From: a phage
Reading direction: 5' to 3' (one strand)
Assembly (NCBI GenBank): GCA_018296565.1
Contig: GCA_018296565.1_3935.1
DNA length: 64,000 nt
Position 1 is the stretch's first letter. Each line of letters opens with the position of its first letter. The position numbers and the translations under genes are program-made. The notes below the pieces were generated by a model. The model made no database searches. It worked only from the letters and a program-made list of their open reading frames with translations, and was not told the DNA's origin. Positions 44,862 through 51,927 of this stretch are shown piece by piece.

Positions 44862-45902
44862 ATGGAGAAGTACACATTAAAAAAACTTCCCGATTCAGTT
44901 ACACATGTCTTTATTGACTCTGACAGTATTGCCTATAAAGGTGCTTGTGTAGTTGAGAAAGCAAAATATAAATATGTCAATAAACTCACAGCAGAAGAAT
45001 CTGAACCATTTGATAATGCAAAAGATGCTGCAAGATGGTTAGCAGACCAGAGAATCCTTGTGGAAGAACTTGGCCTGACATTTGATGAAGATGAATGGGA
45101 AAGACAGACTTGGAAAGAAGCTAAGAGTGAAAAAGAAGCTATCATGGCTACTCAGCAGGTTCTTCAGGAATGGCTTAAGGTTGTTGGTAAAGAAAGAACT
45201 TGGGTAGGTTATTTAACAGAGAAGGGTGTACATAAACATAAAGACATTAAAGGTCTTGAGCACCAATATCAAGGTAACCGTAAAGAGGCTGTCACACCAA
45301 CACACTTAGTTGCTTGTCGTGAATATCTTCTATCAAGACCAGAGTTCAAGCTCTTAAAGGGAGGCTTCGAAGCCGATTCCATCGTAATTGCTAAAGCTGA
45401 AAAGATGGGTAAGAAGGCTGCTCTTATGAGTATTGACAAAGACCTTCGACAAGCTGAAGGGACTTATTGTATTGATATGACTTATGAAAAGTCACCACTA
45501 ATTTTTATTGCTGATAATAATGTTGGTGATATCTGGGATTGTCCTATCAAATCAAAACCAAAAGCTGCAAAAACTGTTGGTGTAGGTTTTAAATTTTTGT
45601 GTTATCAGGCTGTTGCTGGAGATAATGCAGACAACTACTTCGGCCTTAAAGGTGCTGGCAAAGTAGCTGTGATGAATGCTTTAGATGGTAAAGAGACCTA
45701 TAAAGAGTGTCTTGACGCTATCTATGAACTCTATGCTAAAAAAGAGTCTTACACCTATGTGTCATGGGATGGACAGACTGTCACAAAGACACCATTAGAA
45801 CTAATGGAACAGCATTTCTGGATAGCATATCAAGAGAGAAATCCAAAAGATAATTTCTCTTTTAAGAAATATAATTGGGAGCCGTGTATGAATGAAGATT
45901 AA
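44862..45902 (+). CDS. 5'-3' exonuclease / flap endonuclease
   Basis: 346 aa; N-terminal acidic cluster VFIDSDS and SIDKDL motif typical of FEN/5'-nuclease PIN-domain proteins. Confidence 0.6.
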   Translation: MEKYTLKKLPDSVTHVFIDSDSIAYKGACVVEKAKYKYVNKLTAEESEPFDNAKDAARWLADQRILVEELGLTFDEDEWERQTWKEAKSEKEAIMATQQVLQEWLKVVGKERTWVGYLTEKGVHKHKDIKGLEHQYQGNRKEAVTPTHLVACREYLLSRPEFKLLKGGFEADSIVIAKAEKMGKKAALMSIDKDLRQAEGTYCIDMTYEKSPLIFIADNNVGDIWDCPIKSKPKAAKTVGVGFKFLCYQAVAGDNADNYFGLKGAGKVAVMNALDGKETYKECLDAIYELYAKKESYTYVSWDGQTVTKTPLELMEQHFWIAYQERNPKDNFSFKKYNWEPCMNED

Positions 45903-46389
45903 AGGATTTGGCAATTGTCCCACCTATGGTCATTGGGTATCTTTATGTGGGGAAGTTGACCCCACTAAACATTTTGGTTTTGTCTATTTAGTACACTGTA
46001 AGAAAACCGGACAATACTATATTGGAAAGAAACAGCTTAATAGTGTGACCAAAAGAAAAGTTGCGGGTAAGACTCGGAAGAAGGTAGTCACTAAGGAAAG
46101 TGATTGGATGACTTATGAGACTTCTTCTGAGTATATTAAAAAAGATATTGAGAGTTTTGGAAAAGAGTTTTTTGACTTTTACATTATTCAAACCTACTAC
46201 ACAAAAGGTGGTCTAGTTTATGGTGAAGCAAACCTTCAACATAAATTCGATGTAATGACAAAAAGGATTGACTCTAAGCTCAGACTCTTCTACAATGCCA
46301 ATATTGCAGCAATTAAGTTCATTACTAAAGAAACTTATGAAGATGCTGAAAAAAGAATCCATAAGGTAATGAAAGCAAACTGTGCTTGA
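45892..46389 (+). CDS. GIY-YIG nuclease (homing endonuclease-like)
   Basis: 165 aa; GIY-YIG module FVYLVHCKKTGQYYIGKKQ; start overlaps 3' end of the exonuclease gene. Confidence 0.6.
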   Translation: MKIKGFGNCPTYGHWVSLCGEVDPTKHFGFVYLVHCKKTGQYYIGKKQLNSVTKRKVAGKTRKKVVTKESDWMTYETSSEYIKKDIESFGKEFFDFYIIQTYYTKGGLVYGEANLQHKFDVMTKRIDSKLRLFYNANIAAIKFITKETYEDAEKRIHKVMKANCA

Positions 46390-46410: not shown

Positions 46411-46641
46411 ATGTTTAACAAAAGTAAAGCTGTGAGTCATGTAGCAAAAGTTGACAGCAAGATTGAAGAACTTGAGCGCATTCTTGCAAATGCCAGAGAG
46501 TCAATAATTAAAGAGGTTGAAGCTGTTGAATCTCAAATGCAGCACCTAATGCTTAAACGTCAAGAGCTACGTGAGCATCTGGAATATATTGAAACACGAG
46601 AGCTAAAGGTTAACAGATTTTTAAGGAGTCCAAATGTTTAA
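46411..46641 (+). CDS. Hypothetical coiled-coil protein
   Basis: Track ORF starts at a TTG at 46396; internal ATG at 46411 taken as start; helical. Confidence 0.4.
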   Translation: MFNKSKAVSHVAKVDSKIEELERILANARESIIKEVEAVESQMQHLMLKRQELREHLEYIETRELKVNRFLRSPNV

Positions 46642-47389
46642 CTCAAGAGAAGCAGTAAAAAACTGGAATCTTCGTTGTGGAAACACTCAAAAGCAACCTT
46701 ACAGTGATGAGTATTGGGAATCTTTAAAATCCCAGTCTTTGTGTATGCTTGAAGAAGCAAAAGAGCTTGTAAAAGCAATTGAAGAGAAAGACCCCATTGA
46801 GACACTAGATGCTCAGGCAGATTTGCAATATGTTCTTGATGGTCTGATTTATCTGTCACAGCATGACCATAACGGTGCTATGAAAGCTGTTTGCCATAAT
46901 AATGACCTGAAGTACACAGACGACTATGAAGAAGCTTTAAAACGTCTTGCAGATATTGAGAAGCGTACTGGTCAAGAGTGTATCATCAGAATGTCAGTAG
47001 TTGATGGCAAAGAATGGTATGCAATTGTTCGTGCAGCCGATGGGAAGATTATGAAGCAATCTAATCTCCCTAAAGTTCAGCTTGGTGAATACATTGTAGA
47101 ACTTGAAAGCCAAGAACTTTTTGTGGTAGTATCTGAGACATGCGTTATCTGCAAAGGTATTGTATGTAGCTTAAAGGATTTGGGTGTAGATGGTTTTGTA
47201 GAAGTTAATCCAATTACCTCTAAAGCAGATAAAGATTTCTGTAAAGAGAATGGACTATGGATTGCAGATATTGTCTACTATGATGGTGAGCAGTTCCATG
47301 TAACCTCATACCCAAAACTGAATTATGATGCTAATAACCTGAAGTGCTGGTTAAAAGGGGTTGGTTATAATGGATTCACAGAACATTAA
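46634..47389 (+). CDS. MazG-like NTP pyrophosphohydrolase domain protein with unknown C-terminal domain
   Basis: 251 aa; N-terminal region has the all-alpha MazG-type acidic pattern (EEAKELVKAIEEKD...DAQADLQYVLDGLIYL); C-terminal 130 aa Cys-containing, unknown. Confidence 0.45.
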   Translation: MFNSREAVKNWNLRCGNTQKQPYSDEYWESLKSQSLCMLEEAKELVKAIEEKDPIETLDAQADLQYVLDGLIYLSQHDHNGAMKAVCHNNDLKYTDDYEEALKRLADIEKRTGQECIIRMSVVDGKEWYAIVRAADGKIMKQSNLPKVQLGEYIVELESQELFVVVSETCVICKGIVCSLKDLGVDGFVEVNPITSKADKDFCKENGLWIADIVYYDGEQFHVTSYPKLNYDANNLKCWLKGVGYNGFTEH

Positions 47390-47693
47390 TAAAGAAGGTG
47401 TGGCTCAGAAGAGCCACTTCTCAAACTACAATATCTCTATGACGGTGTTTATGAATGACCCGTTACTTGAGAAGTATGGTGAGACTCCAGATACACTTCT
47501 GGATAATGAACAAGTTTTAAAAGCAGTTCTGTACAAATACGGGATTGATATTGAAAAAGAGTATTCTTTTGAAATTTGCCAACATAGAAATACTTTTGGT
47601 AAAGTTGTAGTCGCCCCCCTATTCATGGGTGTAGAAAGAACTGACTATGGTTGGTTGTATCTAAAAAGAAACTTGGAGAAATACCGTGTCTAA
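47370..47693 (+). CDS. Hypothetical protein
   Basis: Track ORF starts at a TTG at 47361; internal ATG at 47370 taken as start. Confidence 0.4.
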   Translation: MDSQNINKEGVAQKSHFSNYNISMTVFMNDPLLEKYGETPDTLLDNEQVLKAVLYKYGIDIEKEYSFEICQHRNTFGKVVVAPLFMGVERTDYGWLYLKRNLEKYRV

Positions 47694-48067: not shown

Positions 48068-50302
48068 ATGATTAAGACAATTAAAAAATCAAACGGTACA
48101 GTAGTAAGCTTTGACCCAGAAAGACTGAATAAGTGGGCATCATGGGCAGATAAACGTGGAATTATCTGGTCAGAAGTCACTATGGAAGCTATGAAACGTG
48201 TCTATGAAGGTTGCACTACAAAAGAGATGCACCAAGCCATGATTGATGTTTGTGTTGATAAACAAACTCAAGAGTACTCAGATATGGCTGGACGGCTACT
48301 TCTGGGGATTATCTACAAAGAAGCCTTTGGAGGCTTTACTAAGGTTCCTACGCTGATTACCTTCGTTAAAAATATGGAGAGAGCAGGACTTTGGGAGAAG
48401 ATGGACTATTCACAGGAAGAGCTTGAATACCTGCAAGGTTACATCGTGCACTCAAAAGATATCTCCTACGGTTATGCAGTCTTGAAACAGTTCAGAGACA
48501 AGTATGGCATCCGTGATATTAAAACGGGAAGACTTTTTGAGTCACCACAATTTATGTTCATGGGTATGGCTATGAAAGCCTTTGAGAAGCAACCAAAGCA
48601 CCGTAGACTGCAAGATGTTATCAAGCTGTACACTTACCTATCTGACCTAAAGATTAACGCCCCTACACCTTATTTAAACGGTTTAAGAGCTACTAAATCA
48701 GGTTATGCGTCATGTTGTTTGATTAAGGCGAACGATACTGCCGAATCACTTGGTATTGCTGCAAAGGTTGCTTATGACATGACTACAAAGCAAGCTGGTA
48801 TCGGGATGCTGATGGAGACTCGCACTATTGGTGATGGTATCCGTCAAAACACGATTGAGCACATGGGTAAGCTGCCTTATTATAAGCTTGTACGTTCATC
48901 TGTAGAGGCAAACAAACAGAAGAGTCGTGGCGGTTCAGCTAATAACTTCTACACTGCTCTAGACCCGCAGATTGAAGATTTACTGCGTTTGAAGCACCCG
49001 ACAACGGTTCCTTCTAAACGTATTAATGAGATGGACTACTCATTCGGCACAAACGATTATTTCTGGCAGTGTGTTCAGTATGATACAGACTGGTTGCTAT
49101 TCTCTTACAAAGATGCACCAAAACTCTATGACATGTTCTACACAGCATCTGCTGATGAGTTTGCTATGGCAGTTGGTCACGCAGTACATTCAGGAGTCAA
49201 GCACAGACGAGTCAAGGCTCGTGAAATTGCTAAGCTGTTTATTCAACAGCGTTATGCTACAGGTCGTGTGTATCCATTCTTCACTAACAATGCAAACACA
49301 CATACACCATTTAAAGAACCATTGAAGATGTCAAATCTTTGCATGGAAATTGTGTTGCCAGTGTATGGTTTTGAGAAAGAGACAGACCTTTACAGAGATG
49401 ATGCTGTGAAAGAGGATGGTGAGGTGGCTCTTTGCTTCCTAGCTAGTTTGGTTGCAGGGAGAATTTCAGAAGATGAATACGCTGACGTTGCTTATTATGC
49501 TCTTGCAATGGTTGACTCCGTTATTGACCTTATGGATTATCCGTATCCGTCGATGCGTAACCATGTTCAGAAGCGTCGTTCTGTTGGGATTGGCCTTACA
49601 AATGTGGCTCATTACCTTGCGAAGAACTACGTGAACTACTCTTCACGAGCAGGTAAGACAAAGCTTCATGAGCTTGCTGAAATGCACTCTTACTATCTGC
49701 ATGAAGCCTCTCTGAGACTTGCTAAAGAGCGTGGAGTTCCAGAGTACATGAAGTTCACTAAGTACCCTGAAGGCTGGGTTCCTCCAAAGACAGCTAACAA
49801 GAAGATTGATGAAAAGCATGATGCAAAACTACGATATGATTGGGATAACTTAGCACAACGTATCAAAGAAAATGGTGGAATCCGAAACTCTGTATTAGAA
49901 GCTTACATGCCTAATGAGAGTTCTTCACTAGCAACTAATACGACAAATGGTTTGTACCCAATTCGTGACTTTATTTTAACTAAAAAGTCTGCAACTGGTA
50001 ACGTACTGTTTATTGTTCCAGATTATGAAGAGTTGAAGTATGTCTATGAAATTGCTTGGGATATCGACACCTTTGATATGATTGACTGTTATGCAATTGT
50101 TCAAAAGTTCACTGGTCAAGCTATCTCTTCAGACTTCTATGTTGACTATGCAAAGTCTAAGAAGGTATCATTGGCTCAAGCTCTGAAGTACATGATTTAT
50201 GCCAACTCGGTAGGTATGAAAACCATGTACTATCTGAACAGCCGTATCGGTGTAGGTAAATCTGCACTGCAAGATGCTTATTGCGAGGGTTGTGGTGTTT
50301 AG
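48068..50302 (+). CDS. nrdA: Ribonucleotide reductase class I large subunit
   Basis: 744 aa; catalytic signature SNLCMEI and C-terminal Cys pair (CEGCGV); followed by small subunit gene. Confidence 0.9.
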   Translation: MIKTIKKSNGTVVSFDPERLNKWASWADKRGIIWSEVTMEAMKRVYEGCTTKEMHQAMIDVCVDKQTQEYSDMAGRLLLGIIYKEAFGGFTKVPTLITFVKNMERAGLWEKMDYSQEELEYLQGYIVHSKDISYGYAVLKQFRDKYGIRDIKTGRLFESPQFMFMGMAMKAFEKQPKHRRLQDVIKLYTYLSDLKINAPTPYLNGLRATKSGYASCCLIKANDTAESLGIAAKVAYDMTTKQAGIGMLMETRTIGDGIRQNTIEHMGKLPYYKLVRSSVEANKQKSRGGSANNFYTALDPQIEDLLRLKHPTTVPSKRINEMDYSFGTNDYFWQCVQYDTDWLLFSYKDAPKLYDMFYTASADEFAMAVGHAVHSGVKHRRVKAREIAKLFIQQRYATGRVYPFFTNNANTHTPFKEPLKMSNLCMEIVLPVYGFEKETDLYRDDAVKEDGEVALCFLASLVAGRISEDEYADVAYYALAMVDSVIDLMDYPYPSMRNHVQKRRSVGIGLTNVAHYLAKNYVNYSSRAGKTKLHELAEMHSYYLHEASLRLAKERGVPEYMKFTKYPEGWVPPKTANKKIDEKHDAKLRYDWDNLAQRIKENGGIRNSVLEAYMPNESSSLATNTTNGLYPIRDFILTKKSATGNVLFIVPDYEELKYVYEIAWDIDTFDMIDCYAIVQKFTGQAISSDFYVDYAKSKKVSLAQALKYMIYANSVGMKTMYYLNSRIGVGKSALQDAYCEGCGV

Positions 50303-50615: not shown

Positions 50616-51685
50616 TTAACCAACACCCAATCTTTTTAGGTGGTGAGAGAAAGACATTTGACTCACTTAATAAACACTACCCAAAAATCTTTGAGCTTTA
50701 TAAACAACAAAAAGCACAAGATTGGTCAGAAGATGAGTTCCCTTTTGAACAATCACGTCTTGATTTTGAGAGTGTCCCAGCATCAATGTCAGGTGTAATG
50801 CTTGAGATTCTTAAGTGGCAGTGGGAAGCAGATACCCAAGTTGCTAAGAGCTTGGCATTCGCCTTTGCACCATTCATCTCTGATGACATCTATGCAACTG
50901 CAATTATGAAGCAGTCTGAGATTGAAAACCTACATGCTCTTACTTACTCAGAGATTGTAAGGCAATGTATTAAAAACCCTGAAACAATTTTAGATGAGAT
51001 TAACCAGAATGTTGCTGTACAAGACCGATTAAAAACTGTGAATCGTGTTCTTGAAGAATTACTGGATGAAGGTATAAACTACCGCCTGAGTTATGTCCGT
51101 GATTCACTTCTGGACAAAGACCATTTACACTTCCATAAAGTGATTCTGAAAGGGCTGTTTGCAGTGACTGCACTTGAAGGCATTTCCTTCATGGCATCCT
51201 TTGCATGTACCTTTGCACTTGATGCTCAGGATAAATTTCAGGGTATTGCTCAAGCTGTCCAGAAAATTATGCTTGATGAAATCCTTCACACCAAAATTGA
51301 TATTGAAGTTTTAAAAGAAACTTTAAGAGATGATGAGTGGCAGAAAGCTTTTCAACAAATTCTTCCAGAGATTAAAGTAATCTTAGATGAAGTAGTTGAA
51401 AGTGAAGAGAAATGGTCGTATTATATCTTCTCCGAAGGACGTGCTGTAGTTGGCTTAAACACAAAACTTCTTCATGAGTGGGTTTACTATAATGCTGCCC
51501 CACTGTATGATATGTTTGGCATTCCCAGAGATTTTGTAGCTCCTAAAGAACCACCTTTGAAGTATATGATTAAGAAGATGGAAATTGATAAAGAGCAGAA
51601 TGCTAATCAGGAGCAACAGAACGGTGCGTACCTGTTGAATACTGTTGTAGATGATTTGAATAGTGGATTTTTAGAGGTTCCTTAA
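50612..51685 (+). CDS. nrdB: Ribonucleotide reductase class I small subunit
   Basis: Track ORF trimmed to ATG at 50612 with aaggag RBS; about 357 aa; position after nrdA. Confidence 0.8.
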   Translation: MINQHPIFLGGERKTFDSLNKHYPKIFELYKQQKAQDWSEDEFPFEQSRLDFESVPASMSGVMLEILKWQWEADTQVAKSLAFAFAPFISDDIYATAIMKQSEIENLHALTYSEIVRQCIKNPETILDEINQNVAVQDRLKTVNRVLEELLDEGINYRLSYVRDSLLDKDHLHFHKVILKGLFAVTALEGISFMASFACTFALDAQDKFQGIAQAVQKIMLDEILHTKIDIEVLKETLRDDEWQKAFQQILPEIKVILDEVVESEEKWSYYIFSEGRAVVGLNTKLLHEWVYYNAAPLYDMFGIPRDFVAPKEPPLKYMIKKMEIDKEQNANQEQQNGAYLLNTVVDDLNSGFLEVP

Positions 51686-51927
51686 TGACTTATGTGATTT
51701 ACTCCAAAACTGGATGCCCTCAGTGTGAGACTGCAAAGAATTTTGCAAAAGCTCGTGGTATTGACCATGTTGTGAGAATGTTAGGGCAGGATTATGAACT
51801 GTCAGACCTGATGGATATTGCACAGATGCCAGTTCGTCAGATGCCATTCATCATGAAAACTGATGGACAAAACCTAAAACCTGTTGGAACGCTACAGAAT
51901 TTTATGGCAGAGGTGAATAATGCTTAA
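51685..51927 (+). CDS. Glutaredoxin-like protein (NrdH/Grx family)
   Basis: 80 aa with CPQC redox motif near N-terminus (YSKTGCPQCETAK), immediately after nrdB. Confidence 0.6.
   Translation: MTYVIYSKTGCPQCETAKNFAKARGIDHVVRMLGQDYELSDLMDIAQMPVRQMPFIMKTDGQNLKPVGTLQNFMAEVNNA

Follow-up and report, generated by a model that had tools for sequence, protein, structure and literature searches.

DR2231 of Deinococcus radiodurans (PDB 2yeu, 2yf3, 5hva) is a single-domain nucleoside triphosphate (NTP) pyrophosphohydrolase of ~150 residues, with an all-alpha core, EExxE and ...D ligands, an N..K motif and an RRxDGKxLKP tail. It has been reported to act exclusively on deoxyuridine triphosphate (dUTP), according to the title of Mota et al. 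2016 (cited in PMC10014863), and dUTP is also named as its substrate in PMC5122711. Here, we analyzed a phage gene whose product appears to join a module of this type, with the same core, ligands, motif and tail, to a C-terminal redoxin domain that DR2231 lacks. The gene encodes a 251-residue protein and occupies positions 46634-47389 (+) of a 64,000-nucleotide stretch of DNA (GenBank assembly GCA_018296565.1, contig GCA_018296565.1_3935.1), which is referred to in its full length as the window. The window belongs to a Felixounavirus, a FelixO1-like myovirus of the subfamily Ounavirinae.

The C-terminal domain resembles NrdH-redoxins and glutaredoxins (PDB 4fiw, 1r7h, 4tr0; the phage's own glutaredoxin) in its length of ~80-90 residues, its predicted thioredoxin fold, its "hydrophobic strand-K/S-x-x-C-x-x-C-helix" layout and the proximity of ribonucleotide reductase (RNR) genes. 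Tethered redoxins have been described. The C-terminal domain of plant adenosine 5'-phosphosulfate (APS) reductase (5yry) is a CxxC thioredoxin-fold domain attached to a sulfonucleotide enzyme, and it aligns with the phage domain over 85 columns. Other redoxin-fused nucleotide enzymes are the glutaredoxin-NrdB fusion of Facklamia ignava and the thioredoxin-nucleoside diphosphate kinase fusions (NME8/9). In these proteins, however, catalysis by the partner enzyme involves or depends on a redox step. No such step belongs to NTP pyrophosphohydrolysis, so a redoxin role in the phage protein would have to be regulatory or aimed at another protein.

A further comparison, by description, is with phage T4. 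Its gp56 dCTPase/dUTPase is an NTP pyrophosphatase of the all-alpha superfamily that stands beside a phage RNR, thymidylate synthase and deoxynucleoside monophosphate (dNMP) kinase. The T4 deoxynucleoside triphosphate (dNTP)-synthetase complex is non-covalent and has no fused redoxin domain.

Predicted N-terminal pyrophosphohydrolase module

The coding sequence and its N-terminal module comprise the following features.

46634-47389 (+): complete coding sequence, predicted DR2231-type NTP pyrophosphohydrolase plus linker plus CxxC thioredoxin-fold domain (list of open reading frames, PHROG 2144)
46634-47083 (+): predicted all-alpha NTP pyrophosphohydrolase module of DR2231 type, residues 1-150 (Pfam, profile and fold)
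46751-46765 (+): putative first metal-binding acidic motif EExxE, E40-E41-A-K-E44, invariant in fused and standalone relatives
46799-46822 (+): second acidic motif, E56-T-L-D59-A-Q-A-D63, aligned with DR2231 "HELAD" and HisE "EMVD"
47030-47056 (+): basic tail R133-A-A-D-G-K138-I-M-K141, a DR2231-like signature (RRxDGKxLKP), from alignments and the DR2231 match

The Pfam family PRA-PH (PF01503) matched residues 25-78 at E = 8.6e-6, its score of 26.5 bits exceeding the cut-off (21.3). This match upholds the assignment to the MazG/HisE superfamily made in the first-pass annotation, an earlier reading of the DNA from its letters and open reading frames alone, and it is the opposite of the outcome named there as a refutation. 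The acidic helices on which that reading was based are present as well (E40-E41-x-x-E44 and E56/D59/D63). The module is not MazG proper, whose Pfam family (PF03819) gave no match in the window protein up to E = 10.

A scan of viral contigs yielded 28 full-length loci and 29 loci that matched query residues 1 to ~154 only. At the loci where the frame was reconstructed, the standalone homologues are open reading frames of 120-190 residues ending just past a conserved "R-x-x-D-G-K-[IM]-[LM]-K-P" tail; they are homologous to the N-terminal part of the fused protein and have no redoxin domain. Since these homologues end at ~154, the pyrophosphatase module comprises residues 1 to ~150, and not the 110 residues proposed at first.

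We compared a profile built from fused and standalone sequences (A6) with the PDB. DR2231 ranked first (E = 1.2e-9) over two stretches, the core and the tail. In the core, EESAE of DR2231 aligned with E40-E41-x-x-E44, HELAD with D59...D63, and N..SK with N90..K93, while the DR2231 tail "RRADGKQLKPEGW" aligned with R133...K141. At the sequence level, this similarity was seen only through the profile widened with standalone phage relatives; a profile from the fused members alone did not reach DR2231 in the PDB. With the widened profile, E. coli MazG (3crc) was found at E = 0.013 only, against 1e-9 for DR2231. By these profile comparisons, the N-terminal domain belongs to the DR2231 (dUTPase-type) branch, outside MazG proper.

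Structure prediction, which had been suggested as a check in the first-pass annotation, agreed with this placement: AlphaFold2 models searched with Foldseek gave a DR2231-type N-terminal module and a thioredoxin-fold C-terminal domain. The full-length model (mean predicted local distance difference test score, pLDDT, 82.8) has helices at 25-50, 54-75, 79-91 and 98-112 and strands within 116-133. Besides the four helices of the core, the module is predicted to have an insertion (~95-133) made up of a helix and a beta-hairpin, and a basic tail that is conserved. The insertion, which is also found in some of the standalone proteins, distinguishes the phage protein from DR2231, as does D59, which replaces the canonical Glu one position later. 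Foldseek matched the model to the DR2231 entries 2yf3, 2yeu, 2yfc and 5hva in the PDB (probability 0.98-1.0, TM-target 0.50-0.63), and to viral proteins in BFVD labelled by UniProt "NTP pyrophosphohydrolase, DR2231-like" (TM-target up to 0.79, root-mean-square deviation (rmsd) ~2.8 Å).

E40, E41, E44, D63, N90, K93, K138 and K141 are invariant over every fused and standalone relative. R133 is likewise invariant among the fused members, and D59 is functionally replaced by E60 (the canonical ExxD) in one of them (P0020). Because the eight ligand and motif residues are invariant, the module is predicted to be catalytically competent, with what appears from the alignments and the model to be the complete metal and phosphate ligand set of a DR2231-type all-alpha NTP pyrophosphohydrolase.

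Among the relatives of this module, one DR2231-like locus (L036:1378-2064) has a 228-residue open frame with an extra N-terminal region of ~85 residues (MKKIEIGDVLRCITDEEPPFNNFKVGDEAEV...), which may be a different fusion partner. In BFVD, several phage "nucleoside triphosphate pyrophosphohydrolases" of 230-290 residues, including A0A0U2KZ74 (Pseudomonas phage SM1), A0A1W6DYL1 (Aeromonas phage phiA8-29) and A0A1J0MGF7 (Serratia phage IME250), align with the full-length model over 200-286 columns at an rmsd of 16-19 Å. They may represent other two-domain NTP pyrophosphatase architectures in which the domains are arranged differently.

Predicted C-terminal thioredoxin-fold domain

The first-pass annotation had described the C-terminal part as 130 residues without a recognizable motif, marked by the string VCICKGIVCS, which corresponds to residues 169-178. 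Our analysis corrects both points. After a 10-residue linker, the domain spans residues ~161-251 (91 residues), and it contains an invariant CxxC in a predicted thioredoxin fold, with profile matches to NrdH, glutaredoxin and Glrx-like families. The features are as follows.

47114-47386 (+): predicted thioredoxin-fold (glutaredoxin/NrdH-like) domain, residues 161-251 (AlphaFold2, Foldseek and profiles)
47141-47152 (+): CxxC motif C170-V-I-C173 at the N-terminus of the first thioredoxin-fold helix, invariant and aligned with the CxxC of NrdH, glutaredoxin and thioredoxin
47267-47269 (+): D212, the cis-proline-equivalent site before strand beta-3 (HMMER alignment to NrdH, model and family alignments)

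An AlphaFold2 model of residues 161-251 alone reached a pLDDT of 86.9 and a predicted template modelling score (pTM) of 0.78, and the full-length model likewise gave a confident prediction for these residues. The predicted topology is beta-alpha-beta-alpha-beta-beta-alpha, with strands at 161-165, 188-191, 212-216 and 221-225 and helices at 171-182, 197-206 and 233-242. The 50 best Foldseek matches in the PDB were all thioredoxin-fold proteins (best E = 3e-4, TM 0.55-0.67, probability ~1.0).

C170 and C173 are unchanged at 27 of 27 full-length loci and invariant in all members down to 37% identity, where they make up two of only eight invariant columns of the domain. At the sequence level, the domain is highly divergent, but its matches agree with one another. 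A phmmer search of the whole protein against the PDB had placed TCVIC on TCHFC of a thioredoxin-fold protein at E ~1, a lead and not evidence by itself. The top eight PDB matches of the family profiles were four NrdH-redoxins, Grx3, two thioredoxins/DUF836 proteins and the redoxin domain of APS reductase (E 0.03-0.3), with the CxxC in register in 8/8. Two of nine relatives matched Pfam Glutaredoxin (PF00462; best E = 1.6e-5) and four of nine matched Glrx-like, and an Erwinia-phage homologue gave weak matches to the NCBIfam models for NrdH and mycoredoxin (18-21 bits against cut-offs of ~86-90).

The domain differs from typical redoxins at several positions. The HMMER alignment placed "QAPVV" of NrdH on "IADIV" ("igDvv"), which puts Asp212 at the cis-proline site, and strand beta-3 begins at residue 212 in the AlphaFold2 model. 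In other members, this site is Cys (the Erwinia-phage group) or Ser or Gln (two others). Inspection of the family alignments also revealed neither the TVP and GG motifs, which mark the glutathione site, nor the WSGFRP motif of NrdH. Unlike NrdH-redoxins and glutaredoxins, furthermore, the domain does not occur alone. Among the remaining cysteines, C203 is absent in two subgroups, and C178 and C238 are confined to the window protein. The predicted fold and the position of the CxxC thus characterize residues 161-251 as an atypical glutaredoxin/NrdH-like thioredoxin-fold domain.

In the Kolesnikvirus-type members (Erwinia phage vEam_W_25, L002:4989-5735; relative P0022), the Cys at the cis-proline-equivalent site lies in "IGCVAFF" and the C203 of the Felix group is absent. 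Judging from the alignment, a three-Cys cluster beside the CxxC is possible in these proteins.

The phage also encodes its own glutaredoxin at 51685-51927 (+), after nrdB, with 80 residues, a CPQC motif, a cis-Pro-type "QMPF" and a match to Pfam Glutaredoxin (E = 4e-7). The phage therefore has two different CxxC thioredoxin-fold modules within 5 kb. We considered the C-terminal domain as a recent duplicate of this glutaredoxin and rejected the idea, as hhalign gave a probability of 11% over 28 columns.

Fusion architecture, distribution and gene neighborhood

Two further features complete the gene.

47084-47113 (+): flexible interdomain linker, residues 151-160 (low pLDDT, substitution rates and alignment variation)
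46623-46628 (+): Shine-Dalgarno sequence AAGGAG, read from the sequence, with the ATG 5 nt downstream

The reading frame starts with ATG and runs exactly from 46634 to 47389 (+), giving 251 residues and a stop. Its start codon overlaps the stop of an upstream 76-residue open reading frame (ATGTTTAA), and this overlap suggests that the two genes are translationally coupled. At its 3' end, the gene is overlapped by 20 nt by the start of a downstream 107-residue open reading frame.

Many phages of Escherichia, Salmonella and Shigella share the 2.1 kb surrounding the gene at 96-97.5% identity. A single unbroken frame of 244-251 residues is kept in 305 phage records; with coverage of at least 80%, the frame is present in 302 phage records. 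The fused frame occurs in at least four genera at 37-80% identity and in independent metagenome assemblies, with metagenomic relatives reaching down to 37% identity with the frame intact. The gene is thus a core gene of Ounavirinae-like phages. PHROG 2144 ("MazG-like pyrophosphatase") matches residues 1-250 at profile positions 1-290 (E = 1e-101), so that the two-domain protein as a whole is an already recognized phage family.

The ratio of nonsynonymous to synonymous substitution rates (dN/dS), calculated against homologues of 75-80% identity, was 0.05-0.10 for residues 1-150 and 0.15-0.24 for residues 161-251. For the linker it was at least 1 in three of four comparisons, over 10 codons only. 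All of these values are approximate, with dS near saturation and the linker short. Purifying selection acts on both domains but not on the linker. The linker has a pLDDT of ~57, falling below 50 at residues 156-158, and its length and sequence differ among members; the full-length model has a pTM of 0.44. The selection pattern, the low linker pLDDT and this pTM together indicate two constrained modules on a flexible tether. The conserved frame, the relatives down to 37% identity and the low dN/dS also rule out a chance open reading frame.

Run exhaustively with HMMER against 1.84 billion representatives, the C-terminal profile returned six genuine 50%-identity clusters. All are of 244-251 residues and carry the domain C-terminally, so the redoxin domain is known only in this fusion. 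Four long matches (P0024-27) were rejected as tandem-repeat false positives. The N-terminal module has 1,496 relatives, and among the best 120 of them only the Ounavirinae-type proteins are ~250 residues long; as judged from these searches, the module is common as a standalone protein. The first-pass annotation had proposed a novel fusion. The protein is a genuine two-domain fusion and the identity of its second domain seems to be new, but the full-length family was already on record as PHROG 2144.

Database names for the protein are "MazG-like pyrophosphatase", HisE-type or hypothetical, and several records use phosphoribosyl-ATP pyrophosphohydrolase. The redoxin domain is not mentioned in these annotations: RefSeq states "motifs: NTP-PPase", the precomputed Pfam match is PF01503 only, and the top BFVD match is "Uncharacterized". 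Likewise, a full-text literature search found no description of a MazG-thioredoxin or MazG-glutaredoxin fusion, or of the redoxin half of the Ounavirinae gene. The redox-type identity of the second domain thus seems not to have been recognized previously.

Upstream of the 251-residue gene, the order is DNA polymerase, dNMP kinase, primase/helicase, exonuclease, GIY-YIG endonuclease and a small open reading frame; downstream follow two to four small open reading frames, nrdA, nrdB, grx and nrdD. This order is the same in the window and in all examined relatives, including Kolesnikvirus (38% identity) and metagenomic members (37-45%). NrdA (48068-50302, +) ends in ...AYCEGCGV, the usual redoxin-accepting CxxC tail. 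A close complete genome (NC_028825) encodes thymidylate synthase, dihydrofolate reductase, dNMP kinase, two RNRs, phosphoribosyl pyrophosphate synthetase and Nampt. Neither a dUTPase nor a dCTP/dCMP (dC(T/M)P) deaminase was found in its annotation, and tblastn with E. coli Dut against NC_028825 and the window detected no Dut homologue, with no match better than E = 0.5.

Two neighboring genes carry misleading labels. The GIY-YIG gene at 45892-46389 (+) encodes a SegE-like homing endonuclease (PF19835, E = 9e-28), which RefSeq and many GenBank records call "NAD synthetase". The downstream 107-residue open reading frame (47370-47693, +) is ~90% identical to chain G ("Phage protein") of PDB 9W3D (E = 4e-59) and distantly related to chain G of 9W3E; both entries belong to a December 2025 bioRxiv preprint on phage proteins that inhibit the RNA polymerases of E. 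coli and Pseudomonas, and the homologue in that preprint is probably "EP1". The PHROG label of this frame, "thymidylate synthase" (phrog_3506), was considered as support for a role in dUMP supply and discarded as spurious, the frame being an RNA polymerase-inhibitor homologue. The label is almost certainly a mis-annotation propagated from Pakpunavirus records.

Proposed function and alternative explanations

We propose that the 251-residue protein is a bipartite nucleotide-pool enzyme of the phage replication and dNTP-synthesis module, in which a dUTP/dNTP pyrophosphatase is coupled to other activities via a thiol-disulfide domain, and we put the probability of this reading at about 0.5. The N-terminal module would hydrolyze dUTP, and possibly other (deoxy)nucleoside triphosphates, to the monophosphate and pyrophosphate. 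By hydrolyzing dUTP, the module would prevent uracil from entering phage DNA and provide the phage thymidylate synthase with dUMP. With no other dUTPase recognizable in the genome, the module would be the sole dUTPase-type activity encoded by the phage.

For the CxxC domain, we suggest with lower confidence a thiol-disulfide module that links this activity to the RNR/redoxin network. As the hydrolytic reaction needs no reductant, the redoxin would have to act on a partner or as a switch. It might dock on a redox partner, with the CxxC tail of NrdA as one candidate, in the manner of NrdH or glutaredoxin, and thereby tether the pyrophosphatase where deoxynucleoside diphosphates are made; alternatively, it might switch the pyrophosphatase with the cellular redox state. 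Thiol control of MazG-like enzymes has a weak precedent in DR_1022 of D. radiodurans, a MazG-like protein that was trapped by a bacilliredoxin. That the domain, without its cis-proline, has become a dedicated adaptor, docking on the phage RNR or another redox partner or making pool sanitation respond to oxidative stress, is a tentative idea that we regard as possible at best.

Several observations weigh against the proposed function. The shared gene order, which otherwise speaks for it, may reflect no more than genome-wide collinearity within Ounavirinae. Sequence does not reveal which substrates a member of the MazG superfamily acts on, and the interdomain geometry of the AlphaFold2 model, with its low pTM, is uncertain. 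The window protein itself matched neither Glutaredoxin (PF00462) nor NrdH (TIGR02194) above the curated cut-offs in Pfam and NCBIfam, and the loss of the cis-proline is unusual for an active thiol-disulfide oxidoreductase. With a canonical glutaredoxin adjoining nrdB, the phage can do without the fused domain as an RNR reductant. Nor does the operon serve nucleotide metabolism alone, since the open reading frame downstream is an RNA polymerase-inhibitor homologue, so that host-takeover genes are mixed in. Finally, 28 of the 29 standalone DR2231-like viral loci have no RNR, glutaredoxin or ThyA neighbor by tblastn, a count obtained on short contigs and at BLAST-level sensitivity. The single locus with a linked dNTP-metabolism gene by the same method, which favors the proposal, is L038, an unrelated viral contig whose standalone gene (3483-4049) lies ~460 bp upstream of a thymidylate synthase (4509-5381) 39% identical to Felixounavirus ThyA.

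One alternative retains the fold and removes the redox chemistry. The CxxC might help to bind a metal or an iron-sulfur cluster, with further ligands coming from D212 (or C212) and a second subunit, or the domain might serve a purely structural or oligomerization role. Loss of the cis-proline lets active-site thiolates of the thioredoxin family bind metals, and the Asp found at this site in most members, the Cys in the Erwinia-phage group, the missing glutathione-binding and NrdH signatures and the restriction to this fusion, as expected of a dedicated accessory module, are all consistent with such a role. Nevertheless, only two cysteines are invariant, the CxxC is placed exactly as in redox-active redoxins, and active redoxins give the best sequence matches; nor would a purely structural role account for the absolute conservation of both cysteines. 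We consider a non-redox domain unlikely. The idea that (p)ppGpp or second messengers of immunity are broken down by the MazG-like domain, which would keep the host metabolically active or counter defence, with the C-terminal domain as an accessory, appears more doubtful still. Phage "mazG" genes are usually assumed to act in this way, and the flanking host-takeover factor would suit such a role. The idea was also repeated for a Felixounavirus in PMC13155118, a co-evolution study of phage P10 in which the mazG-like gene CDS_060 was mutated both with and without oxidative stress and was read by the authors as a (p)ppGpp-related MazG. The placement in the DR2231 branch, with no PF03819 match and with E. 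coli MazG far behind DR2231, makes this alarmone role less likely than one in the dNTP pool; PADLOC gave no match for the window protein, and the wider context is nucleotide metabolism. In addition, the cyanophage MazG that was assayed reportedly preferred dGTP and dCTP over ppGpp.

Two other explanations can be dealt with more briefly. Many GenBank records name the protein as HisE, the phosphoribosyl-ATP pyrophosphohydrolase of histidine biosynthesis, and HisE 1yvw was indeed the best PDB match of the fused-only profile (E = 0.0067). The name, however, was carried over from the title of the matched Pfam family (PRA-PH), DR2231 scores far better once standalone relatives are added, the basic tail is of the DR2231 type, and the genome annotation lists no further gene of the histidine pathway, all of which makes a HisE function very improbable. 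An artefactual fusion, in which two adjacent genes were joined by faulty sequencing or assembly or by a recent, accidental read-through, has no observation in its favor and is refuted by the recurrence of the frame across the 302 phage records, independent metagenomes and at least four genera and by the purifying selection on both halves; its probability is practically nil.

If the adaptor idea were true, whether by docking or by an oxidative-stress response, the C-terminal domain would represent a redoxin subfamily that has not been described before and is restricted to its fused form, and docking would amount to a covalent, hard-wired counterpart of the T4 dNTP-synthetase complex. For the biocontrol and typing of Salmonella and E. 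coli, FelixO1-like phages are in wide use, and the 251-residue gene belongs to their conserved replication and nucleotide core. Its database names ("MazG-like", "HisE", "hypothetical") steer readers towards an alarmone hypothesis that the sequence does not favor. The present analysis corrects the annotation for more than 300 genomes, an incremental and not a fundamental advance. The combination of a dUTPase (DR2231)-type half with a CxxC redoxin found only in this fusion leads to a testable hypothesis for these phages, namely that control of the dNTP pool may be coupled to the redox state or to RNR.

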